Position numbers and translations under genes: made by a program
Virus record (IMG/VR): IMGVR_UViG_3300033073_001761
Location: 4,547 to 68,546 of that record
From: a virus
Lineage: Duplodnaviria > Caudoviricetes
Length of the DNA: 64,000 nucleotides
Strand: one strand, 5' to 3'
The notes under the pieces: model-generated
Seen by the model: the letters and a program-made list of their open reading frames with translations, nothing else
Databases searched by the model: none
What the model was told of the DNA's origin: nothing
Part shown: positions 1 through 64,000 of the stretch, one piece after another
How the letters are laid out: each line of letters opens with the position of its first letter
Position numbering within the stretch: position 1 is the first letter of the stretch

Positions 1-2
1 CC

Positions 3-134
3 GATTTCAATGGACCGGCTTACATCTGGTATCAGATCGCGGTAGACACGCATCGTAGACGCTCGGATCACGCCGTCTCGAATAATCTCCGCGGCGGCAG
101 TGCTGTCGGTGTAGTGGTAGAGATTACGTGCCAC
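3..134 (-). CDS. Partial ORF truncated by the window edge; N-terminus resembles ADP-ribosyltransferase-like (HYD-type) domains
   Basis: Read manually: GTG start with AGGAG upstream, MARNLYHYTDSTAAAEIIRDGVIRAST...; LYHYT...I...G.I..S is a typical ART-fold start; only 44 codons visible. Confidence 0.4.
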   Translation of the reverse strand, partial: MARNLYHYTDSTAAAEIIRDGVIRASTMRVYRDLIPDVSRSIEI

Positions 135-375
135 TGTCGTTGCTCCTAGTATTCGGCTGTTTGAACCACCACGGGTATAGTTCATCGACACGCTTGATTA
201 TTCTGGCCTTGGCCTTGCGGCACAAAACGTGTTGATCGGTATAAATCTTGCGCATCCAATCGTATACCCATATTGTCTTATCCCTCTGAACCCAACACGC
301 CACCGAAGATATCCCCCTACCCTCGAATGCTTTCACCCTAGCCGTTACGTACATCGCATTATTCGGGTCAAACAT
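124..375 (-). CDS. Hypothetical phage protein
   Basis: ATG with purine-rich RBS (GAAGAAAGG); co-oriented with neighbours. Confidence 0.6.
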   Translation of the reverse strand: MFDPNNAMYVTARVKAFEGRGISSVACWVQRDKTIWVYDWMRKIYTDQHVLCRKAKARIIKRVDELYPWWFKQPNTRSNDSGT

Positions 376-436
376 ACTTTACCTTTCTTCCCTTATTGCT
401 CTTTCTCGCCAATAGCTGCGCAGACATTCGTCACCC

Positions 437-1075
437 TTACCTCTCGTAATCAGCTTTGCCGCAAGCCATGCACCAGTCGTCACCGCCGAGCGTCCACTGG
501 TTGCAGTGCCGACACCGGACGTGATCGCTTGACGGCCGCACGCTATTCGGGTCGTTCTTCAGCCGGTCCACGAACCGCCGCATCCCGCCCAGCGTTTGGT
601 ACTCAGTCCGCTCGTGTCGGCCGTATCCGTAGCTAACGGTCCGCGGCTCGTATCGCTTTACCACTTCGGCAACATCATCGTTGGCGGATTCGCCAGGACG
701 CGTACAGTGTACCCAGAAATCCAGGGTGCCGGCAAGGTCAGTCAGGCGGCACTTGTATTCGCCGCTTTTCGTCTCGCCAACCCAGATTGCGTAGTAGGTC
801 TTGCCCTTGTACTTGACCTTGGCGACGATCTTAGTGTCGTCGGGTAGTTGCTTCTTAACGTCGCCGCTTTCGCTTTTGTCAGTAGCAGCTGGAGCAGCGG
901 TCAGATCCGAGATCAACTTTTCGGCCTCGGCAACCTTTCCCGTTCCTACCCACCAAGCACGCCGGGCAGGATCCCAGTGTCCGCCGAGAGCCTTGATATC
1001 GTCTTTAATCGCGTAGGTGTCGCCGATAAAGTAGACGCGGCGAGCTTCCTTTTCCAGGGTGATAGACTTTGACAC
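437..1075 (-). CDS. Hypothetical phage protein with C-terminal Zn-ribbon (CxxC...CxxC)
   Basis: TAAGGAG RBS; YAIKDDIKALGGHWDPARRAWW phage-type N-terminus; CRHC/CMAC at the C-terminus. Confidence 0.75.
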   Translation of the reverse strand: MSKSITLEKEARRVYFIGDTYAIKDDIKALGGHWDPARRAWWVGTGKVAEAEKLISDLTAAPAATDKSESGDVKKQLPDDTKIVAKVKYKGKTYYAIWVGETKSGEYKCRLTDLAGTLDFWVHCTRPGESANDDVAEVVKRYEPRTVSYGYGRHERTEYQTLGGMRRFVDRLKNDPNSVRPSSDHVRCRHCNQWTLGGDDWCMACGKADYER

Positions 1076-1093
1076 TTGATCGCTCCTTAAAAC

Positions 1094-1156
1094 TTAGCCT
1101 GCCATCTTCAGTACCAGCTAGGCTAACAGCTGGTAGACGCCCGAAGGCGTTTCGGC
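1094..1156 (-). ncRNA. Type II hammerhead ribozyme 1
   Basis: Minus strand: GCC-GAAA-CGCC(TTCG)GGCG-TC-[TACCAGC/GCTGGTA stem I]-CTGAAGA-T-GGC; stem I loop TTAGCCT pairs with downstream AGGCTAA (pseudoknot); predicted cleavage after GUC between 1136 and 1135. Confidence 0.88.
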
Positions 1157-1282
1157 TTATCGACCGCGACTCGTGTAATAATCGAAACCAAGCATCCCGA
1201 TTGCGAGAAACAAGCTGATGTACCCAAACACCACATTTCCGACCGCAAACTGAACAGCCGCGTTGATTAGATTGATAGTCAT
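1157..1282 (-). CDS. 41-aa hydrophobic peptide, not in the ORF track
   Basis: AGGAG RBS; MTINLINAAVQFAVGNVVFGYISLFLAIGMLGFDYYTSRGR; stop abuts ribozyme 1. Confidence 0.6.
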   Translation of the reverse strand: MTINLINAAVQFAVGNVVFGYISLFLAIGMLGFDYYTSRGR

Positions 1283-1336
1283 TTTCGATTCTCCTAACTT
1301 CCCTGCTTCACCATTCCAAACCACTACCGCAACTGC

Positions 1337-1438
1337 TTACCGACGATCGTTCCGGGCATCGGCCATGGCCTGCGACCAGACCACTTCGCTAGCGACAACC
1401 GAGGCAACCAATGCGGCGATTACGATGATCACTTCCAC
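1337..1438 (-). CDS. 33-aa single-TM peptide (true start of track ORF 1337..1600)
   Basis: GGAG 8 nt before GTG; MEVIIVIAALVASVVASEVVWSQAMADARNDRR. Confidence 0.55.
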   Translation of the reverse strand: MEVIIVIAALVASVVASEVVWSQAMADARNDRR

Positions 1439-1453
1439 TTCGAGCACTCCATT

Positions 1454-1515
1454 TAGCCTGCCATCATCAGTGGTCACCCGGCTACTGGTGACCAGACGCC
1501 CGAGGGCGTTTCGGC
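1454..1515 (-). ncRNA. Type II hammerhead ribozyme 2
   Basis: Minus strand: GCC-GAAA-CGCC(CTCG)GGCG-TC-[TGGTCACC/GGTGACCA stem I]-CTGATGA-T-GGC; loop TAGCC pairs with downstream GGCTA; predicted cleavage between 1495 and 1494. Confidence 0.9.
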
Positions 1516-1517
1516 GA

Positions 1518-1604
1518 TTAGTGATACCGTCGCTCGCGTCGCAGATCCAAGTGGCACCGATAGGCCACGAAGCTGATAAACGCGAGTAGTACGATTTCAT
1601 CCAT
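1518..1604 (-). CDS. 28-aa hydrophobic/basic peptide, not in the ORF track
   Basis: TAAGGAG RBS; MDEIVLLAFISFVAYRCHLDLRRERRYH; stop abuts ribozyme 2. Confidence 0.55.
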   Translation of the reverse strand: MDEIVLLAFISFVAYRCHLDLRRERRYH

Positions 1605-1670
1605 GACTAGCTCCTTAGATCGCTACTACCATCACCCCTACATTACAGTATTCGCTCGCCGTATCTAATA

Positions 1671-1686
1671 TTGGCGAATCCGCCAA
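1671..1686. promoter_or_regulatory. Palindromic operator candidate TTGGCG-N4-CGCCAA, copy 1
   Basis: Perfect 6-bp inverted repeat in an AT-rich intergenic region; second copy at 2196-2211. Confidence 0.55.
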
Positions 1687-1768
1687 ATTATTTCAAAATA
1701 ATTTTCTTGGCGATATTACATTCCCAAGCAGGTCGGGCCAATCCCTCGCTCGATAGACTCGGGAGTAG

Positions 1769-2125
1769 TCAGCGGGCGACCGCAGCGGCCGCAGCGGCCT
1801 CGATTGCGTCGCCCTCGCCGGCGAAAATGCGGTAGAGTGTGCGGGTCAGTAGCTTCCAGGGCCACGAAGTTTCCGGGAGCGACGACTTAGCGGTCCGCCA
1901 AACTTCGCCATTCGGTCCGAGCTTGCCGACGTAAGTGTAATCGCTGGTGTTATCGGGACCGGTGAGGATCGAAACAAAGTAGCATTCGTCGTACTTGTCC
2001 GTCTTAGCTTTGTGGCAGACCTTGAACGTGTAATGTGACGTGCCGAGGTGCTGGTATTGTTCCGGAACCTCGATCGTGAAAATCGCCTTGCCCGCGGTGA
2101 TGAATTCTTTGGTAACCATAATCAC
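1769..2125 (-). CDS. Conserved-type hypothetical phage protein
   Basis: AAAGGG RBS; FITAGKAIFTI...HYTFKV...LTGPDN pattern typical of phage early proteins. Confidence 0.7.
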   Translation of the reverse strand: MIMVTKEFITAGKAIFTIEVPEQYQHLGTSHYTFKVCHKAKTDKYDECYFVSILTGPDNTSDYTYVGKLGPNGEVWRTAKSSLPETSWPWKLLTRTLYRIFAGEGDAIEAAAAAAVAR

Positions 2126-2195
2126 TGCCCTTTCTCAATCATCTGCAATCCTGCGATCATCCGCACATAACGGTATTCGCGACCGGAAAGCAATA

Positions 2196-2211
2196 TTGGC
2201 GGATTCGCCAA
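2196..2211. promoter_or_regulatory. Palindromic operator candidate TTGGCG-N4-CGCCAA, copy 2
   Basis: Exact reverse complement of 1671-1686; same AATA 5' flank and shared GTATTCGC upstream. Confidence 0.55.
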
Positions 2212-2213
2212 CA

Positions 2214-2516
2214 TTATTCTGGAGAATATTCCTCGCATCGGTAGCAGTGCTCACGCGGGCGGACGCGGCGACCAAGTAGCTCGCATTCGCGGGGCCAGGA
2301 GAAAGGACAGGAGCCGGGTTTGCGCGAACCTGGATCGACTAGCTGGCCGAGGTGCTCGCAAGGTCGAGCGGCAAAATTGTTGGCGCGGATAGGGCCGACG
2401 GGAGAAGATACCTGGGGAGCTTCGGCCCTAATCTGGGGAGCTTCGGCCCTTGCCTGGGGAGCTTCGGCCCTTGCAGCCGATTTTGCGAGATCAAACAACC
2501 GAGAACTCGAGCGCAT
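2214..2516 (-). CDS. Small Cys-rich hypothetical protein with RAEAPQ repeats
   Basis: C-terminal part of track ORF 2214..2591: PCEHLG...C...C...CYRCEEY; start inferred at ATG 2516. Confidence 0.45.
   Translation of the reverse strand: MRSSSRLFDLAKSAARAEAPQARAEAPQIRAEAPQVSSPVGPIRANNFAARPCEHLGQLVDPGSRKPGSCPFSWPRECELLGRRVRPREHCYRCEEYSPE
2412..2474. repeat. 21-bp tandem repeat x3 (CTGGGGAGCTTCGGCCCTTGC)
   Basis: Three direct copies with no spacers. Confidence 0.95.
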
Positions 2517-3546
2517 CGATCGCACCTGGCTTGTCAATAGTGATGCAACCACCAGCCGGGCCAACAAACGGCAACGCCGCGGCGATCGCAATATCGGGGA
2601 AATCTGGATCGTTACCCGGCCAGTCGTCCTCGAATCTTACGCGACCTACCCACTGCTGCGATCCAAACTCGGGGTCGGCACGATCGTAAAACGCGTCGGC
2701 CCAAAGCACCCGAACGTCGGCAGCTGGAGCCAGCCCATTGACGTGACCTAAAGAATTGCTCACCGAATCCAACCAGACCAGCGGCACGTGCGGCCGGCAC
2801 CAATTGACGCCACCGAGGTCACCGCCGTGATTCGGGCCTCGGCAGGTATTTGCGATCGTCGCTGGCGAGTAAACGTAGCGGTCGATTTCGACGCCGAAAC
2901 TCACGGACGGCTGCACGGCGCTCGAGTAATTCCCCTGGAGCAGCGTATCACAATCGCGGCTATCGTTCGGCAGGTTGCTAATCGTCGCGGTCACCGAGTT
3001 TGGCTTGCTCGCGGCCAGCCAGCGGGCGAGGGTGACAAAGGGCACCAAGGCAAACGTTTCGCCGGCGAGCCCAGATTCCGACCGTGGGCAGATTTTGCGT
3101 CGGCCGGCTTCTAGGGATTCGTCGACGACAGATACTAGGTTGTCGGCCTCGGCATCATAGACGTAATTCGCGTAGTAGTCGTCGTCCCAGAGTGAAAGGT
3201 CAATGCCGTGCTGCAGTGTTTCGCCGACCGTAGCCTTGCGAATTCTTAGCACCGCGCCAATTCCGTCACCTTCATCGTCACGTGTGTAATACCAAGCGTC
3301 CGTGTCTTGCGACAAGTATTTGACAACGAGCCCCGGAACGCCGGCATAACCGGGATTCGGGATTCTCGCACCAGTCGGCACGCCGTTTAGATTCGCGTAC
3401 GTTTCGATGAGTATTAGCGTGTTTTGCCAGGGAGCTTCGCCGAGGATTCGCTGCGTGCGATCGACGGAAGCCGTGCGGGCCGACAGGTAGGGTCGCTTGA
3501 TTCGGCAGTCGGTCTGACAGCAGCAAAAGCCAAGTCCGAAGCCCAT
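2491..3546 (-). CDS. Hypothetical, probable virion/tail protein
   Basis: 351 aa; N-terminal CCC motif; end of the late minus-strand operon. Confidence 0.6.
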   Translation of the reverse strand: MGFGLGFCCCQTDCRIKRPYLSARTASVDRTQRILGEAPWQNTLILIETYANLNGVPTGARIPNPGYAGVPGLVVKYLSQDTDAWYYTRDDEGDGIGAVLRIRKATVGETLQHGIDLSLWDDDYYANYVYDAEADNLVSVVDESLEAGRRKICPRSESGLAGETFALVPFVTLARWLAASKPNSVTATISNLPNDSRDCDTLLQGNYSSAVQPSVSFGVEIDRYVYSPATIANTCRGPNHGGDLGGVNWCRPHVPLVWLDSVSNSLGHVNGLAPAADVRVLWADAFYDRADPEFGSQQWVGRVRFEDDWPGNDPDFPDIAIAAALPFVGPAGGCITIDKPGAIDALEFSVV

Positions 3547-3575
3547 AGCTACCTTCTCCCGCTGGCCTGGACTGC

Positions 3576-5063
3576 CTACTCGCCCGCCTGCTCGCAGTTG
3601 TACGCGATCACAACACCGTCAACCGCTGCAATCGTCGTCGCCGCCGGCAGCACCTGCGACGTCGCTAATAGCCCGGCATCAGAAACGACTGTCCCGCCTG
3701 CGGTCGTCGCGGTTCCCTGGCTCACCAGTTCCTCGGTCAGAGTGCTGACATACAGGCCACCAGTTTCGGTCTGGTGTCGGATCGGTGGAGCGATGACCGG
3801 TAGCTCGCGGCGAATCAAAGTAGTTGTCAAACTGTTCTCGATCAATTTGAAAATGGCATCAGTCACCGCCGAACCGTCGACGTTGATTTCTAATCCAGCG
3901 GCGTAAACCCTCCGCATCGGTGAGGCCGCGGCCGCGGATCGATCGAAGTATCTTGCGGCGATGTCGGCCCAAGGATCGGCAACGTCGTCTCGGCCTGGCA
4001 GCGAATCTTGTACCCGCGGCACTTGCACCCGCGCTGTCGTTTCGCGGACCACTTGCTCGGCGGTTCGGCCGGAATCCACCGTCGCCGGCGACCACGGTTG
4101 CGGGTCGTCGTGGTCAACTGGCCGGCGGGAGAAGAGGTCAACCCGCTCAACCTCAAACGCACCTCGGAATATCAGCGGGCGAGCGTCGTAGATCAAATAG
4201 CCGGCAATTTTGCTCTCGATCCCGTCGTCGTTGTTGATCGTCGTATTACCCTTAAACGACAGCGAGTTGCCGTCAATCCTCTTGATCGCCCAGCCCTTGG
4301 TCGCGAAATCCCAGCCGATCACACAGTGTGCGTAGTCAACCAGCTCGCAGATCGCACGCCAGATTGACCGTTGCTCGAACCGCAAGTTTTCCGGCGTCCA
4401 AGTCGGCGCGTCGGGCCAGGCCGGCGGGGAAGTGAGCCCGTCGCCGCCCGGTTGCGTTGTGAACGGTAGTCGCGACCAGAGATCAGCCAGAATCTGCGAC
4501 CACGTCCACGGTTGCCCGCTCCGCAGTGTCGCAGCCTTGTAGTTTCGGGTATCACCAGTGCCGTTGCTTGCCCAGACATTGTAAGCCGCGGCGGGCCACT
4601 CGCTCGGTCGGGCACCTGCTCCCGCCGGCCCTCCGATCCCAGGACCAGTCGACGTACGTAGCCACCACCAGCGAGGGTCGACGACGCGACACGCGACGAC
4701 GGATTCGCTGCCGAGCGTTTCACCGTCTTCGGTTGTCAATTCGCGGACGGTTCGGCCGAAATACTCATACGCTTCGATAATTGTTAGATTGTGAATCTCG
4801 ACTGCCCAAGGTAGATTCGCAGCGTAGGGCGTGTTGTGGAATCGCAATGGCTTTAACTTGTCGACCATTGCAAGGTCATGATACTGTTTGACGGTTGAGC
4901 GAGGCAAGAGTATCCAGCCTTCGCCGTGATCCAGGCCGACCGGTAAGCGGAAAGTGCCGATTGGCAGGTCGGTGCGAACAATCGTCCCCTCGGCCTGGAG
5001 TTGCCGGGCTTGGGCGGTAGGTAGTCGCAGGCAGGGCCAGTCGCCGAAGGTGAGGCCGGGCAT
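3576..5063 (-). CDS. Hypothetical, probable tail/baseplate-hub-like virion protein
   Basis: 495 aa, coupled to the upstream ORF; function inferred from context only. Confidence 0.55.
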   Translation of the reverse strand: MPGLTFGDWPCLRLPTAQARQLQAEGTIVRTDLPIGTFRLPVGLDHGEGWILLPRSTVKQYHDLAMVDKLKPLRFHNTPYAANLPWAVEIHNLTIIEAYEYFGRTVRELTTEDGETLGSESVVACRVVDPRWWWLRTSTGPGIGGPAGAGARPSEWPAAAYNVWASNGTGDTRNYKAATLRSGQPWTWSQILADLWSRLPFTTQPGGDGLTSPPAWPDAPTWTPENLRFEQRSIWRAICELVDYAHCVIGWDFATKGWAIKRIDGNSLSFKGNTTINNDDGIESKIAGYLIYDARPLIFRGAFEVERVDLFSRRPVDHDDPQPWSPATVDSGRTAEQVVRETTARVQVPRVQDSLPGRDDVADPWADIAARYFDRSAAAASPMRRVYAAGLEINVDGSAVTDAIFKLIENSLTTTLIRRELPVIAPPIRHQTETGGLYVSTLTEELVSQGTATTAGGTVVSDAGLLATSQVLPAATTIAAVDGVVIAYNCEQAGE

Positions 5064-6919
5064 TAGTGCTTACCAAACAGAGTTAATAGACTGGAAAATG
5101 CTTGTGTCACTGCTTGTTGGAACGCGAGGTTTTCCATCGCGTCGACTATGGCGCCGGCACCCGAAAATGAACGATCGGTAGCTTTTTTGCTTGAATCTGT
5201 CCCACTAGAATCTTTCGCCGACGGGTGAGGCAGCTTTTTGCCAATCACTCGCTCAAGTAGCCTTTTCTGTCGAATGATCGTTGGTTCACTCGGATCATAC
5301 TGCACGCCGATAAGGTCCAAGGCGTGATTCAAATCTTGATCCACCATCTGCCTGACACCAGTTTCTTGAGTGGACAAGTAGCTAGGCAGTCGCCGATTGG
5401 AACCAGAGAACGACGGCGAATTACTTTTCGTCGATTTCTCTTCCTTAGCCTTCGATTGCTTTTGCAGTTTCTGTTTTTGCTGTCCCTTCCCTTTTGTCAC
5501 GTCCTTGACTTCGCCTTCGATTCCGTACTTTCGCCGATATTTCTCAGCCTGCTCTCGGCTCGGGAACCACCTCTTTGTTCCTTCGATCCGAAATCCCATT
5601 CGCCGCTTACCGCTAGACGCAGACGTCGGAATCCCTCGCGATTGCAATTCCGCTCGCGACGCCGCACGCACCGGCCGATTCTGCAACCGTCCACTGGTCC
5701 CCAGGTCAGGAAGCGGGAACGCGGAACCACCTTTACCTTTATCCGTCCCGAACAGCCACGGCCAGGCCAAAGCTAAGCCGTCGCCCGTGTCACTCTTCCC
5801 GCCGATCAAATAAGGTAGCCCACTTGCAAAATCCTTACCCGCAGCGTGCAGCGGGCCGAGCGCCCAGGCGACGGTCGCGATACCGCCGAGGATTCCGACA
5901 CCGATTGCAATTCCTGGCGCGCCCACAGCCATCATTGCCCCGACGGCCAGCATTGTACCCTTGCCCAGCCCGTACGCTGCAGACCCGGCGATTGCAAGTT
6001 TAACCGCTCGGCGGCCTAGCTCGGCCACTCCCTTGGTATAATTGCTTACCGCTCGGCTAACGATACGACCGGTGAGCCAATCACCTGCGTCGAGAGTCTC
6101 CCACATGACCCGGCTCAGGTTCTTTGCGAGGGCCATGGCCGCGAGGCCGACGCCGCGAGGGTCTTTCGCCTTGTCGGCCCGTTTCGATAAGTTTTCGACA
6201 ATTCCGCGAACACCTTCGGCGAGATCTGCGGCTGATTTGGACTTCGTCAAGACCGCCGCGACCATCCCCTGCATCGCATTGAACGCGCCAGCGTCCAGCC
6301 CGTCGATTACTGGTGGCTGAGCCTTAGTGACCGCGTCCGTTAGCCGCTGTCGAATCCGCTGCGTGTGATTTTTTCTCGCGGCGACGACGTCAGGGTCTTT
6401 CGCAAGCCGTGCTACTTGGTCGGCAATCCCATCGAAATCGGCTTCGGCGTCAGCGAAAGCGGTGGCGACAATAGATTCTGGAGATTCTGGGCCAGCGCCC
6501 TCGCCTTCGCTATCGCCACCCTCGCTTGCACCTGCGCCGCCACTTCTCCCGCCGGCCTCGGTCTTATTGCCATCGGCGAACGCGGCCGTTTCCTCGGCTT
6601 TAGCCTCTTGCCGTTCGCCATACTCAGCCGCTGCATCGCTGGTCGCACGATCTTCGCCGAGTTCGCCGCCGCCGCTCCGGCCGGAGCGAGTTTCGAGCAC
6701 CTTGCCTCCGGTCCGCTTCGCGACGACCGCGGCCTCTTCGGGCTCCAGTCCGTATCTCGGCGGGCGACCGTCTTGGTAGGCGACCTTGACACCCATGCGG
6801 CGATAGCTGGGATTCGTGTAATAGACCTTGGCCTGGTCCCTGAGAGTCTTCTTATACTCCGGAAATAATTGGAGTATTGTTCGCCGGGTGCTAGGCGATA
6901 GGTTAGCAAATGCAAGCAT
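5063..6919 (-). CDS. Putative head-cargo/ejection protein with two RMG modules and a hydrophobic hairpin
   Basis: RRMGVKV... and RRMGFRIEGTKRWF... modules; Gly/Ala-rich TM hairpin; paralogous to 7290..8288 and 23428..24357. Confidence 0.65.
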   Translation of the reverse strand: MLAFANLSPSTRRTILQLFPEYKKTLRDQAKVYYTNPSYRRMGVKVAYQDGRPPRYGLEPEEAAVVAKRTGGKVLETRSGRSGGGELGEDRATSDAAAEYGERQEAKAEETAAFADGNKTEAGGRSGGAGASEGGDSEGEGAGPESPESIVATAFADAEADFDGIADQVARLAKDPDVVAARKNHTQRIRQRLTDAVTKAQPPVIDGLDAGAFNAMQGMVAAVLTKSKSAADLAEGVRGIVENLSKRADKAKDPRGVGLAAMALAKNLSRVMWETLDAGDWLTGRIVSRAVSNYTKGVAELGRRAVKLAIAGSAAYGLGKGTMLAVGAMMAVGAPGIAIGVGILGGIATVAWALGPLHAAGKDFASGLPYLIGGKSDTGDGLALAWPWLFGTDKGKGGSAFPLPDLGTSGRLQNRPVRAASRAELQSRGIPTSASSGKRRMGFRIEGTKRWFPSREQAEKYRRKYGIEGEVKDVTKGKGQQKQKLQKQSKAKEEKSTKSNSPSFSGSNRRLPSYLSTQETGVRQMVDQDLNHALDLIGVQYDPSEPTIIRQKRLLERVIGKKLPHPSAKDSSGTDSSKKATDRSFSGAGAIVDAMENLAFQQAVTQAFSSLLTLFGKH

Positions 6920-6963
6920 GGGAAAGTTCTCGCTGTCAAAGATTCGGTAGACTGTTCAGCTTT

Positions 6964-38307: not shown

Positions 38308-40374
38308 TTAGTCGACCCGCCAAGCTCCCTCGACCGTCCAAATCTGCCAGACTAGCCCAGGTAGCAAGTTTGCCGGGTCGAATCCATCGGGCAGCGCAAA
38401 AACTGCGACCGCCGCCGAAATCGACACTTGACTACCAGTGTCTACAGCGAGCCCAATTTCAGCCGACACTCGAAAATAAGTGGTCAGGGCGAGATCGTAA
38501 TTTGCGTCGATATTTCGCGAGGTTGCTAATGCCAAGGAAGGACTGATGGCAACTCGATAGTCGGTTGCCAGGCCGAAATCTGCAGACGCGACTCGCTCTT
38601 GGTAAGTCGCCGCGGCAATCCCGATCGTTTGCGTAGCCTCATGACTGGTGCTCAAGCCAAGGCCATGGTCGATTTCAATCTCACGATGGGTGTTGATCGC
38701 GAAAGAGCCAGTGATTCCGGTGATCTCCGTCGAACTAATTGGAAGTTCGCACTCTTGTTCGACAACCAGGGCTGTCGAGTAGGCAACGTCAATCGTATTC
38801 CCAGCGAAACTGGTCGACGCTATCGCAAGGCCGGCGGGAGAAGTGACGTACCCGAGCGACGCAATTGCAGCCAGTTCTGCACGGGTGACGCCTTGGTTGG
38901 TTGCGGCACCCATGTCAACGGATTTGCTCAACCCGGCAAGCGTGCCAAGGTCGAGCCCAGCAACAACAGAGATCGCGGAGTCAGTACCTAAGGCGATGCC
39001 GGCCGTTGCAGCGAAATACTGCGTCGTTGCGACAACGACGTCGACCGACCGCGAAACGCTGATAGCGCTGCTGATTGCGACGTCGAACGACTTACTCACT
39101 GGTCCGATGGCTGCAAGACTGGTGTCAGCGATTGCCGATATACCTTGCCGTGTAGCCAAAACGACGTCGAAATCGACTTCAATGGGCCGGCCGGTGCCCC
39201 AGTCGGGGTCAGCGTCTTCCATCCACAAGATCAAGAATTGCAGCGGGAAGTATCTGGAATTCACCGAGATCACGGTCTCGGACGACCGCGCGAATAAAGA
39301 CAGGTCGACGTCGCCAAAAATTCCGCCGAAAGTCGCGAGCGAAGCGTCGGCGGATTGGCTGGCTGAGATCGCAGTTTCGAGCGAAACGTCGACAGATTGG
39401 CCGAGGTGGCTAGTCGTCGAGATCGCGAATTCCATCTCGCCGGCAACCGGGCCAGCAGTGCCGATGGCTAGGTCAGTTTCGCCAAAAATTCCACCACCGA
39501 AGGTCGCGAGCGAAACGTCGATCGATTGGCCGAGGTAGCCGCCCAAAGAAGCGACGGCCAGTTCCGAATCTTGGGCCAGACCACCTAGGCTCGCGAGATA
39601 TAGGTCGGCCTCGGCCGGCACGAGAGTCAACGCCGAGGCCAAGGCTAGGTCGGCAGATTCTTCAACTCGGCCGGTTGCTCCGAGGGCTAGATCCGCTTGG
39701 CCAAAAATTCCACCAAAGGTCGCAAGCGAAACGTCTATCGAAAGCTCGACGATCGCGAGTAGCTCCCACGAGATCGCGACGTCGGCGGACGCAGAAACCT
39801 CGAGCGCCGACACAAGGCCAACGTCGGCAACGACCTCGACCTGACCCATCGGCGAGAGTGCGAGGTCGACTTGGCCAACGACATTTTGCTGTGAGGCCAT
39901 AGCAAGATCGGCGGACGCTGAAGCATCGGTCGCCGAGGCAAGGGAGAAATCCGAGGTTACAGAAACCTCGAGCGCCGAGGCCAGAGCAAGGCCGGCGGAA
40001 ACGGAAGCCTCGAGCGCCGAAGCCAAGCCGAGATCGGCGGACTGGCTCACGTCGAGAGCAGAGGCGAAAGCAGCGTCGGCGGACCGGCTCACGTCGAGCG
40101 ATGAGGCCAGGGCGAGATCGGCGGACGCAATAACCTCGATCGCCGAGGCCAAGCTGAGATCGGCGGACCAAGAAACATCGAGCGCCGAGGCCAGGCCAGT
40201 ATCAACGCTAGCACCAAGAATCTGAATCGTCGAAAGGCCGAGATCAGCAAATTTGCTCACGTCCAGCGACGTCGCCAAACTGATTCCGATCTCGACCTCG
40301 ACAGGCCGCAAGCTCCCATCGTCGTCTTCGAGCCAGATCGGCAGCAATTGGATAGGCAGCACAGCCACGGCCAA
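38308..40374 (-). CDS. Low-complexity repeat virion protein (13-aa SADLxLASALEVS repeats)
   Basis: Tandem 39-bp repeats at ~39960-40200; three SIDVSLATFGGIFG copies. Confidence 0.7.
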   Translation of the reverse strand: MAVAVLPIQLLPIWLEDDDGSLRPVEVEIGISLATSLDVSKFADLGLSTIQILGASVDTGLASALDVSWSADLSLASAIEVIASADLALASSLDVSRSADAAFASALDVSQSADLGLASALEASVSAGLALASALEVSVTSDFSLASATDASASADLAMASQQNVVGQVDLALSPMGQVEVVADVGLVSALEVSASADVAISWELLAIVELSIDVSLATFGGIFGQADLALGATGRVEESADLALASALTLVPAEADLYLASLGGLAQDSELAVASLGGYLGQSIDVSLATFGGGIFGETDLAIGTAGPVAGEMEFAISTTSHLGQSVDVSLETAISASQSADASLATFGGIFGDVDLSLFARSSETVISVNSRYFPLQFLILWMEDADPDWGTGRPIEVDFDVVLATRQGISAIADTSLAAIGPVSKSFDVAISSAISVSRSVDVVVATTQYFAATAGIALGTDSAISVVAGLDLGTLAGLSKSVDMGAATNQGVTRAELAAIASLGYVTSPAGLAIASTSFAGNTIDVAYSTALVVEQECELPISSTEITGITGSFAINTHREIEIDHGLGLSTSHEATQTIGIAAATYQERVASADFGLATDYRVAISPSLALATSRNIDANYDLALTTYFRVSAEIGLAVDTGSQVSISAAVAVFALPDGFDPANLLPGLVWQIWTVEGAWRVD

Positions 40375-46631: not shown

Positions 46632-48329
46632 TCAATTGTCTTGGCGAACTTCCTGGCCACGCCTGGCCGCTTCTCGCTCCAGTATTTTCAGGCCTTGATC
46701 GATCCTTGCAACGTCGCCCGCAAGCGTTGCATAATCGGGCTGGCTCCGCAGCCGCTCTTCGATTGCAGAGAGTTGGCGGGCCAGCGAGTGAATCGTCTTG
46801 GCGTGCTCTTGGATCTGGTATCGCTGTTCGTCGAGGCACTGGCCGTGATTTGCGATGATCTCGGCGAAGGTAACCGAGTTATCGTCGCGATCGTCGCCGT
46901 CATCGTCGTTCAGGTTATCCGCCTTTTTTGCACCCTTGTCGAGCGGCACGTACTGCATGTATTGCCGTAGGTTCGGAGATTCCGACCTAGCAAAGTGGAT
47001 TGCCTGTTTGATCGCTTCTGGCGATATCACTTCGCGAAACTTCGCGGGCGATAGCGAGGGCTCAACCTTTTCGAGTGCGCCAACCCCTAGATAGGCATCG
47101 CCTAGCGAATAATGGTACTGCTCCTGGGGATGATCCATATCCATCCCGCCAACCGGATCAATACCAGCGGCCCGATCTGCTACCTTCTCAAACAGCCAAG
47201 CGTTTTCATAGTGCATATCATCGCAGACAAACTTCCCTTGCGCGTCCTCGTAAACCAGCACCATTACTTTGCGATCGTCGCTCAGGTCGGCAACACGACT
47301 GATACGGCTCCCGATACGTTCGAGCCGGACATAATCGCCGACCACAAACGGAGGCCGCTCTACCTTAGGGGGCTCTGGCTTCGGCGGCTCTACCGGCTTC
47401 GCCGGGTCCGCTAACTCGATTCGCTCGCGTATCATACGTACGTCGATTATCCCATACCCCGATTCACGATCGTGGCCGGGAGCGCCAACATCGCGGGCTA
47501 GGTCTTTGAGCATCTTCATCACTTCGGGAACTTGGGGTAGCCGGCCATATCGCTCCTTAAACACCGCAAAAGCCAATGCCGCGACACCGGCAACGATAGG
47601 GCAAGCCATAGACGTGCCGCTCATACGGGCGTAACCGCCGCCGGGAACCGGAGCCAAGATATCCACACCAGGAGCCGCGATATCTACCTCGGGGCCGCGG
47701 CTACTGAAACCCGCGATCTTACCGGTTTGGTCGTGAGCCGCTACGCCGATTACAAGTGACGACGCGCCGGGCCATGTCACACCTTGGTCGCCGCTATTAC
47801 CGGCGGACACACAGATTAGGGGGGGAGACTCTAAAGACATCGCATACGCCAGGGCATCCCCAACGATTTTGGATTTTTGCGGCCCGCCAGCAGAGATTGA
47901 GATAATATTTGCGCCAACATTAGACGCCCAGCGGATACCGGCAGCCATCCAAGAATCATTACCCCGGCCTTGGTCGTCCAGGATCTTGCCGATTACCAAT
48001 GAACACTTCGTCGCGATCCCATAATATGGGCCTCGCCCGGCAATCGAGCCGGCGCAATGCGTACCGTGCCCTTGAACATCCCGTGTAATGCCCGATAGGC
48101 TTGTAAAGTTGTACGTGATAACACCCAAACTCAATGCCGGGTGCGTGCTATCAATACCGGTATCCAATACCGCAACCGTAACGCCCTTGCCGCCAAGCTC
48201 CCGCCAATCCTCGGGTATTCCGAGATACTTAGCCGCCCACGATTCCTGAGCGGCTAAGGCGGACACGGTCTCACTCGGCCGTATGTCTACTCGTTGGATT
48301 GGAGGCAGTTCGTAGGTGATGTCGGACAT
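46632..48329 (-). CDS. Subtilisin-like S8 serine protease with C-terminal extension
   Basis: Catalytic motifs VAVLDTG, HGTHCAG, SGTSMACP. Confidence 0.95.
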   Translation of the reverse strand: MSDITYELPPIQRVDIRPSETVSALAAQESWAAKYLGIPEDWRELGGKGVTVAVLDTGIDSTHPALSLGVITYNFTSLSGITRDVQGHGTHCAGSIAGRGPYYGIATKCSLVIGKILDDQGRGNDSWMAAGIRWASNVGANIISISAGGPQKSKIVGDALAYAMSLESPPLICVSAGNSGDQGVTWPGASSLVIGVAAHDQTGKIAGFSSRGPEVDIAAPGVDILAPVPGGGYARMSGTSMACPIVAGVAALAFAVFKERYGRLPQVPEVMKMLKDLARDVGAPGHDRESGYGIIDVRMIRERIELADPAKPVEPPKPEPPKVERPPFVVGDYVRLERIGSRISRVADLSDDRKVMVLVYEDAQGKFVCDDMHYENAWLFEKVADRAAGIDPVGGMDMDHPQEQYHYSLGDAYLGVGALEKVEPSLSPAKFREVISPEAIKQAIHFARSESPNLRQYMQYVPLDKGAKKADNLNDDDGDDRDDNSVTFAEIIANHGQCLDEQRYQIQEHAKTIHSLARQLSAIEERLRSQPDYATLAGDVARIDQGLKILEREAARRGQEVRQDN

Positions 48330-61103: not shown

Positions 61104-61739
61104 GTGTACCCGTGTTCAGTAGTCAATAGGTGCCGAAAAGGCCAAATGGGGAACCAATCTATGGGTGATCGTAATCTCCGTGGGGCGTCGCCGGCGACAA
61201 TACCAGCGACACCTAGCCGATCAAACATCGAAGATCTGTACGTCCGCTGGATGCTGCTGCAGGATGGGCGTGAGGTCTATCGGATTGCGGCAGCAAGTGA
61301 CGTTGACCATGAATTTTTTGAGGAATGCTCATCGCTAGCGGAGAATAAGCCGCCGTTGTGGATGCGACCGACGAACCGCATCGGCATGGTTGCAGATAGC
61401 ATCGGCAGCAGTTGCGGCAGCTCGATATATGGGTTCATGATCTACGACTTGCTCCCTGGCGCAATCTGGCTCCGCCACTTCGCCGTTGATCCACCTTATC
61501 GCCGACTTGGGGTCGGCCGGGTGATGCTGGCGAGACTGCTCGGCAAACTGCTCAGCAAACTGTCCCACGAGCGGCGGAACAAGATCATGGTCACGGTCCG
61601 CGAAAGCAATTTGCCGGCCCAATTGTTCTTCCGCGAGCACGGCTTCCGGGTCCGCGCTATCAAGCGGGAGTACTACAACGACACCGGCGAGGATGGGTAT
61701 GAGATGCGGTTTACGTTGCGGAGGATAATGCATGACTAA
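61104..61739 (+). CDS. GNAT acetyltransferase (RimI-like)
   Basis: FAVDPPYRRLGVGRVML; VRESNLPAQLFFREHGF; YYNDTGEDGY. Confidence 0.9.
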   Translation: MYPCSVVNRCRKGQMGNQSMGDRNLRGASPATIPATPSRSNIEDLYVRWMLLQDGREVYRIAAASDVDHEFFEECSSLAENKPPLWMRPTNRIGMVADSIGSSCGSSIYGFMIYDLLPGAIWLRHFAVDPPYRRLGVGRVMLARLLGKLLSKLSHERRNKIMVTVRESNLPAQLFFREHGFRVRAIKREYYNDTGEDGYEMRFTLRRIMHD

Positions 61740-62796
61740 CACAGAAGCTGAAATTGAAACCGGCCTACTCGAAACTATTCTCGCCGAACCGTGGGATGAA
61801 GAAAACCGGCTGGTGTACGCCGATTGGCTTGAAGAGCACAGTAATAGTAAGGCAGCGGAACTACTGCGGCTACAGATTGATCTGTCTTACTGCGACGCCG
61901 AAGATAGGCTGGATCGAGAACGGCGATTGATCGAGATCGCCGACGATTGCGATTCCATACCGGCTATCACGATCACCAATTCGATCGGCACGGAATTCGT
62001 TCTAGTTTACCCAGGCGCTTTTTTGATGGGCTCGCCAGAATCCGAACTTGACCGATGGAAAGATGAGGGACCTCAGCATCCCGTATTAGTTGACCGACCT
62101 TTCTTGATTGGACGCTATCCTGTCACGCAAGCCGAATGGGAAGCCGTGATGGGAAATAATCCAAGTTCCTTCCTGGGCGAACGCCGACCAGTCGAACGTG
62201 TAAGTTGGACCGAAGCCCAACAATTTGTCGTGAAACTCAACGAACGGCAGGATGGTTTAGTCTACCGCTTACCCACCGAGGCGGAGTGGGAGTACTGCTG
62301 CCGGGCGGGAACTACGACACGCTGGAGTTGTGGCGATGACTTGTCCCGGCTCAGTGATTACGCCGTCTTTGACGCCTTTGAGACAGCTTCAGTGGGGAGC
62401 AAACGACCTAATCCTTGGGGCTTATTCGATATGCACGGGAACGTGTGGGAGTGGTGCCAGGATTCGTATGGCCCGTATGATATCAATGTCGATGCGAGCC
62501 TTCCTTACCGCGTGATCCGCGGGGGTAGTTGGCCCTACCTTTCCCAGTACTGCCGGTCGGCGATCCGCTCCAGGTATACTGGCGGACGGCTCAGCACTCT
62601 GGGGTTCCGATTGGCCGCGGAGCCGGTGGATGAGGGCGAATCTCCTGACCACGTAGTGCGCGGGGGTAGCTGGAAGTTCGATTCCCATCACTGTCGGTCG
62701 GCGCTCCGCATCTGGAGTACGCCAGACTTCCGGAACAACATTCTGGGATTCCGGATAGTCGCCGAGCCGGCAGCTGAGGGCGGGCAGAATGAGTGA
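61732..62796 (+). CDS. TIGR02996-like domain plus FGE-sulfatase (CLec-fold) protein with duplicated C-terminal variable-region-like motif
   Basis: RLVYADWLEE; FLMGS, YPVTQAEW, RLPTEAEWEY, NPWGLFDMHGNVWEWC; two RGGSW...RSA.R...GFR motifs. Confidence 0.92.
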   Translation: MTNTEAEIETGLLETILAEPWDEENRLVYADWLEEHSNSKAAELLRLQIDLSYCDAEDRLDRERRLIEIADDCDSIPAITITNSIGTEFVLVYPGAFLMGSPESELDRWKDEGPQHPVLVDRPFLIGRYPVTQAEWEAVMGNNPSSFLGERRPVERVSWTEAQQFVVKLNERQDGLVYRLPTEAEWEYCCRAGTTTRWSCGDDLSRLSDYAVFDAFETASVGSKRPNPWGLFDMHGNVWEWCQDSYGPYDINVDASLPYRVIRGGSWPYLSQYCRSAIRSRYTGGRLSTLGFRLAAEPVDEGESPDHVVRGGSWKFDSHHCRSALRIWSTPDFRNNILGFRIVAEPAAEGGQNE

Positions 62797-63043
62797 GTTC
62801 ATGAACCCCTCGCAAGCAGCGAAGCTGCTTGGAATTAGTAGATCCTCGGTGCTGCGTTTGATCGCTGCTGGTCTGCTCCCCGCGTATCGGCCGACGAAAC
62901 GGCGGGTTGTGATCTTGGTTTCGGATATCGACGATTACCGAGATGCTTGCCGAGTGGCGAGTAAGAAGCCGGCGGCCGCGGCAGCAGCAGAAGAGAAGTC
63001 CCGAAGGCGAGTAGCGACACAAAAGTTGAAGTATTTGGGCTAG
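62789..63043 (+). CDS. Excisionase-like HTH protein
   Basis: MNPSQAAKLLGISRSSVLRLIAAGLLPAYR. Confidence 0.85.
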   Translation: MSEFMNPSQAAKLLGISRSSVLRLIAAGLLPAYRPTKRRVVILVSDIDDYRDACRVASKKPAAAAAAEEKSRRRVATQKLKYLG

Positions 63044-63057
63044 GGAGAATTGATGGC

Positions 63058-63513
63058 ATGTGTTTCGTGAACGATTACGACTGGTTTGCTGAGATTTGCG
63101 AAATCACGACCGAGGAGTCAGACGGCACTATTCAGTGCTGTGAGTGCTGGGGCAAAATCCTAAAAGGCGATAAATATCAGCGGATCTACATGCAGGAGCA
63201 TGAGGAATGCTCCGAGTGCGACGGCGACTTGTCTGGCGACGAATGCGAGCACCATTACGGCGAATCAGTAATCGACAGTACCTGCCTTCGATGCGATGCC
63301 CTGCGAGAGGCGGTTAAGGCGGTAGAGCAGGCGGAGGGGTGCGCCCCGGAAGACTCTGAACCCTGCGTCGGCGAACTCTTTGAGGCAGTCGAGAGTATGG
63401 ATGGGTGGGCTGACTATGCCTTGCGGGCCAGGGCGAAGGGGCTGTCGGCCGAGGAGGACCGCCTTTGGACGATCCATGGGGAACGGGAACTGCAGAAGAT
63501 CAAGAATGGTTAA
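63058..63513 (+). CDS. Cys-rich hypothetical phage protein
   Basis: GGAG RBS; CCECWGKI, CSEC, CLRC motifs. Confidence 0.7.
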   Translation: MCFVNDYDWFAEICEITTEESDGTIQCCECWGKILKGDKYQRIYMQEHEECSECDGDLSGDECEHHYGESVIDSTCLRCDALREAVKAVEQAEGCAPEDSEPCVGELFEAVESMDGWADYALRARAKGLSAEEDRLWTIHGERELQKIKNG

Positions 63514-63842
63514 ATGGGCTAAGGATTCCAAAACACATCATTTTCAACTAGTCAGCTGCACGCAAATTCGCGACATATAGTGGCTGACGACCCACGAATT
63601 ACAACATCTTGTGAACATTGCGTTTTGCGTTTCAGGCAATCGCAGGTAGTATTATTCCGTGGTTGCTCACGCAGCCACGCTTAGCATGGATGCCGAGCCC
63701 TAACAGAATTAAGGAGGGTTAACTCCCAATCGTCAAAACTTTGAAGATTTCTTTGTCAGTAATCACTTAGTGCCACCAATATAATTGGTGGGGAAGAGTG
63801 AAAACAACACCCAGGTGGTTGACGCCACCTGGGTGCTTAAGA

Positions 63843-63915
63843 GACGCCGTAGCCAAGTGGCTAAGGCAACCGGCCTGGAAATCGGTGAACGCGGGTTCGA
63901 GTCCCGCCGGCGTCT
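63843..63915 (+). tRNA. Atypical tRNA, anticodon GGA (Ser-decoding), short variable loop, 8-nt anticodon loop
   Basis: GACGCCG/CGGCGTC acceptor; GCC/GGC D-stem with TGG; ACCGG/TCGGT anticodon stem; GCGGG-TTCGAGT-CCCGC T-arm; discriminator T; no encoded CCA. Confidence 0.75.
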
Positions 63916-63925
63916 AAATCACGAT

Positions 63926-64000
63926 GACCGGGGAACCCAGCTGGTGCTGGGGAGCGGTTGCTACCCGTTTGAAAAGGAGTTCGACTCTCCCCCCGGTCTC
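63926..64000 (+). tRNA. Non-canonical 8/4-fold tRNA, anticodon GCT, 3' end at the window edge
   Basis: 8-bp acceptor GACCGGGG/CCCCGGTC; 6-bp D-stem CCCAGC/GCTGGG with 4-nt loop; AGCGG/CCGTT stem with loop TTGCTAC; 4-bp T-stem GGAG/CTCC with loop TTCGACT. Confidence 0.78.

Follow-up and report, generated by a model that had tools for sequence, protein, structure and literature searches.

A lectin gene near the right end of a temperate phage record (61732..62796, plus strand) ends in two tandem, in-frame copies of a C-terminal module. We read these, with a probability of about one half, as frozen, host-derived DGR-type variable modules that were duplicated in tandem and were both kept by selection. 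The less usual feature is that the variable tip only is copied, with both copies under selection, and that this occurs in a phage lysogeny-region gene of most likely host origin. The window, that is, the whole stretch of DNA that was analysed, is the final 64,000 nt (record positions 4547-68546) of a linear 68,546-nt IMG/VR virus record, which CheckV estimates to be 93% complete. Coordinates below are those of the window unless they are given as record positions.

The lectin gene encodes a 354-aa protein with a TIGR02996 domain, an FGE-sulfatase/C-type-lectin fold and the duplicated module. The TIGR02996-like N-terminus proposed in the preliminary description is borne out: this helical domain ('rpt_mate_G_obs'; 61756..61884, plus strand, residues 9-51) scores 52 bits in NCBIfam against a cut-off of 29.05. 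It is followed by a non-catalytic FGE-sulfatase/C-type-lectin-like domain (61990..62616, plus strand, residues 87-295) that spans positions 3-254 of the 255 in the Pfam profile and is modelled by AF2 with a pLDDT >90. The match to PF03781 is strong (E 1.5e-52; 179.3 bits versus a gathering score of 23.3). The protein itself is a singleton (one contig) in a collection of 5.8 billion proteins, where the next best match has 53% identity. Among solved structures the nearest is TvpA, a DGR variable protein (E 3.6e-28), with the PDB FGEs at ~1e-11. In the catalytic Cys segment after RGGS, where FGE 6MUJ has LCHDSYC, module 1 reads PYLSQYC and module 2 KFDSHHC; the FGE cysteine pair is incomplete in both modules, with one of the two present compared to 6MUJ. 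The product is most likely a non-catalytic binding protein.

The gene lies in a plus-strand operon that runs from a GNAT acetyltransferase gene through the lectin gene and an excisionase-like HTH_17 gene to a Cys-rich ORF; beyond it, at the right end of the record, are tRNAs. The GNAT gene (61104..61739, plus strand; Pfam PF00583, PHROG acetyltransferase) overlaps the start of the lectin gene, and the HTH_17 gene (62789..63043, plus strand; PF12728 E 8e-13, phrog_66) overlaps its stop. The Cys-rich ORF (63058..63513, plus strand) encodes an acidic 151-aa product that is not Avd-like, is without Pfam or PHROG matches and has no IMG/VR relatives. Nearby on the minus strand are replication and recombination genes (RecD-like helicase, RecT and primase-polymerase), and a tyrosine integrase occupies the record's left end (record 76-1470). 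The replication genes, the operon, the integrase and the tRNAs together mark the phage as temperate and the lectin gene as an accessory gene of its lysogeny region, as opposed to a tail gene. This agrees with the regulatory, non-tail setting described earlier, given the GNAT gene upstream, the HTH_17 gene downstream and the RecT, helicase and primase genes on the opposite strand. A search for phage relatives for locus comparison, made through the Cys-rich neighbour and the helicase, found none close.

Several other features of the record can be mentioned here. Beside the integrase, record positions 1-4546 (L132, outside the window) also carry genes for a thymidylate synthase, a class-3 lipase and a weak PAS-like protein, and elsewhere in the window are genes for a subtilase (46632-48329) and for a protein of 1637 aa that has a Nudix domain. 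ARAGORN reports a single odd tRNA whose anticodon is undetermined (63842-63916), and a second tRNA-like stretch (63926-64000) is interrupted by the record end; with the integrase at the opposite end of the record, this suggests a tRNA att site. A dispersed motif, GGCCGGCGGGAGAAGG, is present in at least 9 copies on both strands inside coding sequence (window 4120-58466; e.g. 12774, 24288, 40384 and 58432), and its copies fall in repeat families D3, D14, D15, D18 and D19. In addition, a 42-nt tandem-repeat array (39776-40279) lies within a minus-strand ORF of 688 aa (38308-40374).

The duplication holds as first described, with both copies in frame with the ORF 61732-62796. Module 1, the proximal copy (62509..62626, plus strand; RVIRGGSW...CRSA.R...LGFR...AEP), is one codon below canonical length, with TGG replacing TPD. 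An acidic linker, VDEGESPD (62627..62649, plus strand), separates it from the distal module 2 (62650..62770, plus strand; HVVRGGSW...CRSA.R..TPD.RNN.LGFR...AEP), which has the canonical length, matches the family profile better and keeps AAC AAC at canonical template positions. A repeat search aligns 62502-62579 with 62643-62720 at 73% nucleotide identity and a period of 141 nt. Each module corresponds to the last ~47 positions of the Pfam FGE-sulfatase profile: searched by itself, module 2 reaches 29.3 bits (E 8e-7, positions 208-254 of 255) and module 1 21.6 bits (positions 209-254). At the protein level the two are 51% identical, and 2 and 8 of 300 foreign modules score higher than the sister copy. 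Since the sister modules are no closer to each other than to a few foreign ones, module 2 could have been recombined in and not duplicated. An assembly artefact, in which two population variants were joined in tandem, was also considered and is ruled out: the linker between the copies is unique and keeps the reading frame, and the two scaffolds are not identical.

How the copies differ depends on which codons are compared. The preliminary description listed ten codon pairs that differ at positions 1-2 and share position 3 (10 of 12 variable codons), with a caveat on synonymous scaffold differences and a one-codon indel. All ten pairs and the caveat are correct; the pattern stands for the canonical variable codons but not across the 40 aligned codons, where the differences number 11, 13 and 14 at positions 1, 2 and 3. 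To define variable codons independently, we used the AAC codons of the template in L043, a bona fide DGR locus, 13 of which can be compared between the copies. Of the first and second positions in these codons, 16/26 (62%, near saturation) are different between the copies, compared with 2/13 (15%) of the third positions (Fisher p=0.008). As many as 12 of the 13 positions differ between the copies, plus one indel. In the 18 scaffold codons, positions 1-2 differ at 3/36 sites and position 3 at 7/18, and only 2 of 18 scaffold residues within RGGSW..GFR are different. NNY is found at 21 of the 27 query variable codons compared with 53% in the remaining gene (p=0.008). All these query-specific statistics cover 13-27 codons only and were chosen partly post hoc. 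The modules contain 12-19% A, compared with 25% upstream, and A-ending codons in module 2 are near background.

Purifying selection acts on the motifs of both modules. Between the copies, none of the 28 sites at positions 1-2 of the 14 family-motif codons has changed, and 4 of the 14 third positions carry silent changes, a pattern that is improbable (P ~0.002) even with one copy alone drifting. Seven scaffold codons differ silently and one codon is an indel, which also shows that no single template has rewritten both modules for a long time. Nor can the shared third bases date or prove a shared template, because sharing is high among unrelated modules (mean 8.0/13, with at least 11 shared in 15% of unrelated pairs), although 0 of 60 foreign modules reach at least 11 with either query copy. 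The shared third base at variable codons is largely a family property and not specific to this pair.

One alternative is that the C-terminal module underwent a plain tandem duplication, or recombination with a paralogue, and that the copies then drifted in the ordinary way, with selection acting on exposed residues; no DGR would have taken part in this lineage. The resemblance to variable regions would then come from the shared fold and from surface-residue preferences. We regard such a history as somewhat unlikely, and it does have several results on its side. The differences over all aligned codons are spread evenly over the three positions; in a broader 'non-motif' codon set the excess at positions 1-2 versus position 3 is not significant (p=0.30); and the overall dN/dS between the copies is 0.81 (NG86, dN 0.39, dS 0.48). 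Likewise, each copy has matches among foreign modules that are about as good as its sister, and no RT or template repeat was found anywhere searched. On the other hand, the contrast at the 13 canonical codons, the low adenine content of the modules and a DGR protein as best structural relative all speak against it, as does the codon usage of the wider family.

DGR writing turns AAC/AAT template codons into NNC/NNT. L043, which comes from an uncultured bacterium and served as a positive control, encodes a target 52% identical to the query, and all 22 of its 22 mismatches between variable region and template fall at template adenines. Its variable region lies at 260 and its template at 2077 and 6584, in a duplicated RT+template unit, with an RT within ~2 kb of the variable region. 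For the 14 canonical variable codons, the mean NNY fraction in 57-60 canonical-length homologous modules is 0.86, versus a background of 0.53. Four-fold codons at the family's variable positions end in C in 62% of cases (background 30%) and in A in 3% (background 18%; p=8e-17). This excess at four-fold degenerate codons is unexplained by amino-acid selection, and it is difficult to account for such a family-wide footprint without widespread DGR writing. The footprint describes many relatives and proves no rewriting of the query lineage: the query holds a weakened, eroded form of it, its 21/27 NNY lying in the lowest ~5% of the family. In line with DGR writing in the family, 9 of 80 genomic homologues have a DGR-type RT no more than 6 kb away. 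Among the 28 viral records that bear a homologue only 1 contains an RT, a count that favours a history without a DGR.

The positions that vary between the query copies are the AAC positions of real RT-adjacent templates, both in L043 and in three loci from Planctomycetota genomes (L124, L125 and L128). In these three, N-rich template-like copies (~1501-1600 in each; RGGSW NNN..CRSANRN.N.PDNRNNN.GFR) adjoin DGR-type RTs, which means that DGRs with FGE-type targets exist in the presumed host phylum. The claim of a DGR-type variable-region pattern therefore holds as to the kind of sequence, given TvpA as best PDB match, the template AAC positions and the NNY count, and is not supported as to a working system. 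One argument was dropped along the way: the Ser AGT/AGC adenine in RGGSW could be taken as a bar to DGR writing, and the real Planctomycetota template of L124 has AGC there.

The homologues also point to where the gene came from. TIGR02996 fused to a single-module FGE domain is found in Planctomycetota MAGs (L030, L031, L071 and L087) at 40-45% identity. Outside the query this architecture occurs only in Planctomycetota MAGs, Gemmatales and Fimbriiglobus included, which suggests that the phage infects a planctomycete and that the gene was captured from its host. On these grounds of domain architecture, the phage host is probably a planctomycete. The closest full-length homologues are at least four paralogues in one Planctomycetota MAG (L030:3510-4724 and 5959-6948; L031:2-673 and 1468-2643), with near-identical, slightly drifted ARVLRGGSW...GFRVAFRLD scaffolds around hypervariable, NNC-rich middles. 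No RT was detected in that MAG, and the set has the appearance of a family of DGR targets that was dispersed or retired.

The machinery for active rewriting was sought at several levels. In the whole 68,546-nt record there is no match to RVT_1 (PF00078), and tblastn with the L043 DGR RT, a query that recovered RTs in 9 homologue loci, likewise gives no hit there. An adenine-tolerant scan for a template repeat over both strands of the record returns only the two copies themselves. Neither copy is the template of the other, since of their 18 mismatches in 66 nt only 4-6 are at an adenine of the other copy and 12-14 are non-adenine. Among the neighbouring genes (GNAT, HTH_17 and the Cys-rich ORF without Pfam or PHROG match) there is no Avd or similar accessory gene. 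The only hairpin is a perfect 8-bp stem with a 3-nt loop (GAA) at 62813..62831 (plus strand), 17 nt past the stop codon and 43 nt past module 2, inside the start of the next ORF, and none follows module 1. Hairpins at phage DGR targets have a GC-rich stem of 7-10 bp and a 4-nt GRNA loop and lie 4-34 bp downstream of the variable region (PMC3240598). The hairpin seen here may instead regulate the excisionase-like ORF.

Outside the record, the best template among the collected loci has 19 non-adenine mismatches out of 32 against the query modules, compared with 0/22 in the L043 control, and the N-rich templates of L124, L125 and L128 show 19-22 non-adenine differences. BLAST of both modules against 401 + 267 Planctomycetota genomes (668) gave only short or ~70% matches and no cognate template; three of the matches are the N-rich templates of L124, L125 and L128. 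A scan for the scaffold pattern, made of the bases common to both modules, had 0 matches in IMG/VR and hit 4 contigs in JGI metagenomes, where every match is the coding end of an unrelated FGE gene and none is adenine-rich. In five Planctomycetota genomes with full-length homologues there are many RTs, a genome-wide count without bearing on the lectin gene. The preliminary description would have settled for simple duplication and drift if neither phage nor host had a template or an RT and reads showed no variation; the phage has neither template nor RT, and for the host this extends only as far as genomes were sampled.

An active DGR cassette is not supported: RT and template are missing from the record, the hairpin departs from the consensus, and in phage-associated DGRs the targets and the RT share a genome and lie within ~50 kb (PMC5758913). 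The idea of an active DGR, or of one acting in cis, thus finds no support in the record, nor in the Planctomycetota, metagenome and viral scans, which gave no cognate template. A variant in which rewriting is ongoing, through a host DGR acting in trans on the prophage (possibly with two templates, one per module) or through a cassette in an unassembled part of the phage, is in our judgement distinctly improbable. Trans action from a plasmid has been documented (PMC5758913), the phage is temperate by its integrase, and Planctomycetota do have FGE-type templates beside RTs. Two templates would, moreover, explain why scaffold third positions differ more than those of variable codons. However, every template in the collected loci carries at least 19 non-adenine mismatches, and the matches in the 668 genomes and the scaffold-pattern hits are of the kind described above. 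The one-genome habit of phage DGRs also weighs against it, as does the absence of a GRNA hairpin within 34 bp; and the record ends, formed by the integrase and the tRNAs, leave little room for a missing cassette.

With a phage that lacks RT and template, and with units that have drifted, the modules are better described as frozen variable regions than as a working hypermutation cassette. In the history that we favour, the phage would most likely have captured a lectin gene from a planctomycete host family of TIGR02996 plus FGE-type C-type-lectin proteins. The C-terminal unit of ~47 residues, presumably the ligand-contacting hypervariable face, would have been duplicated in tandem and in frame with the period given above. 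Both units may once have been written by a DGR, with AAC/AAT converted to NNC/NNT, of which an eroded footprint would remain; afterwards, they would have diverged through silent changes and a one-codon indel.

Which of the two tips is used is a separate matter. In the AF2 model of the query, module 1 is placed inside the fold and module 2 is unstructured (pLDDT 34-40). This choice is no evidence on which module is used, because MAFFT put all homologue C-termini against module 1 and the alignment thereby dictated the outcome. In the model of a viral protein with tandem tips (L013), ~50 residues are looped out and the distal copy completes the fold (pLDDT 95-97), which makes a distal tip in that role sterically plausible. 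Module 2, a bare 47-residue tip, cannot fold alone, and either module may be able to complete the fold of the query protein. From here one may go further and suppose that the tips are mutually exclusive fold-completing modules, which give two specificities per gene and are written during lysogeny by one or more host DGR templates; we consider this very improbable. If it were true, a prophage gene would be a remote target of a host hypermutation system, and tip-only tandem arrays would be a general phage means of stacking variable regions.

Tandem tips are rare among the 119 best protein matches and the ~109 homologous ORFs of the collected loci, and they recur in viral contigs. For example, a 377-aa viral protein (L003:9839-10972) has one FGE domain followed by three in-frame tandem tips with DPIEEGSDE linkers; its module scaffolds are near-identical at the nucleotide level, with differences of 8/11/3 and 12/16/6 by codon position and a GC3 of 88%. 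L027 likewise has three tandem tip modules, the first two degenerate. Four other viral FGE-type genes (L013:10594-10843, L016:8230-8480, L026:149-400 and L018:~2983) have two tandem variable-region copies 130 nt apart, with 100% identical scaffolds and differences confined almost entirely to codon positions 1-2. In each of them only the distal copy is read in the frame of the domain, the proximal one being out of frame and ending at a stop of its own, and a run of five Gs (G5) immediately precedes the pair. For L013 and L016 the differences by codon position are 9/10/2 and 10/13/2, which reads as a clean DGR signature. No RT was found in the viral records with tandem tips (L003, L027, L013, L016, L026 and L018), most of which are fragmentary.

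Like the query, L003, L027 and the L013/L016/L026 group place two to three tandem C-terminal modules after one FGE domain, and L003 and L027 also share its acidic (D/E)P..EG linker between modules. The query differs from L013 and L016 in that its copies are both in frame and have diverged at silent sites, whereas theirs combine an out-of-frame proximal copy with identical scaffolds. Together with the query, the tandem-tip contigs form a graded series from active-looking to frozen. The tip-only arrays, some with a clean DGR signature, suggest that variable-region modules can be units of duplication at the DNA level. Should the distal tip be able to take the place of the proximal one, a single gene could offer two binding surfaces. 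Such a gene would also provide a simple case for the tolerance of the C-type-lectin fold to exchange of its variable strand.

Finally, the query can be set against known systems. Orphan or frozen DGR targets are known, as are targets with several complete lectin domains, and FGE-sulfatase-type DGR targets can be far from an RT or left without one. TvpA of Treponema denticola (PDB 2Y3C) and other FGE-sulfatase-type DGR proteins have, like the query, the same fold, a C-terminal RGGSW...GFR variable region and no catalytic role. Compared with them, the query has no RT or template that could be found, a variable module that alone is duplicated in frame, a TIGR02996 N-terminus and a place in a phage lysogeny region. 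Formylglycine-generating enzyme (SUMF1/FGE) has the PF03781 fold too; the query differs from it by the incomplete catalytic cysteine pair in both modules, and PDB FGEs match it less well than TvpA does. The DGR of Bordetella phage BPP-1 (mtd VR, avd, TR, brt) likewise acts on a C-type-lectin-fold protein that is encoded by a phage and is hypervariable in its C-terminal module, but it has RT, Avd and TR beside its tail-fibre target and a GRNA hairpin 4-34 bp past the variable region (PMC3240598), all of which the query lacks. More than one variable region per gene is also found in published targets, such as one with three FGE-sulfatase/CLec domains in tandem (Wu et al. 2018, PMC5758913) and those of DGR 4/5 of Thiohalocapsa PB-PSB1 (PMC10907252). 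In these cases each variable region belongs to a complete CLec domain, whereas the query has a single domain (residues 87-295) and then a bare 47-residue tip. The repeated tip is, in this respect, a variant of the multi-VR theme.
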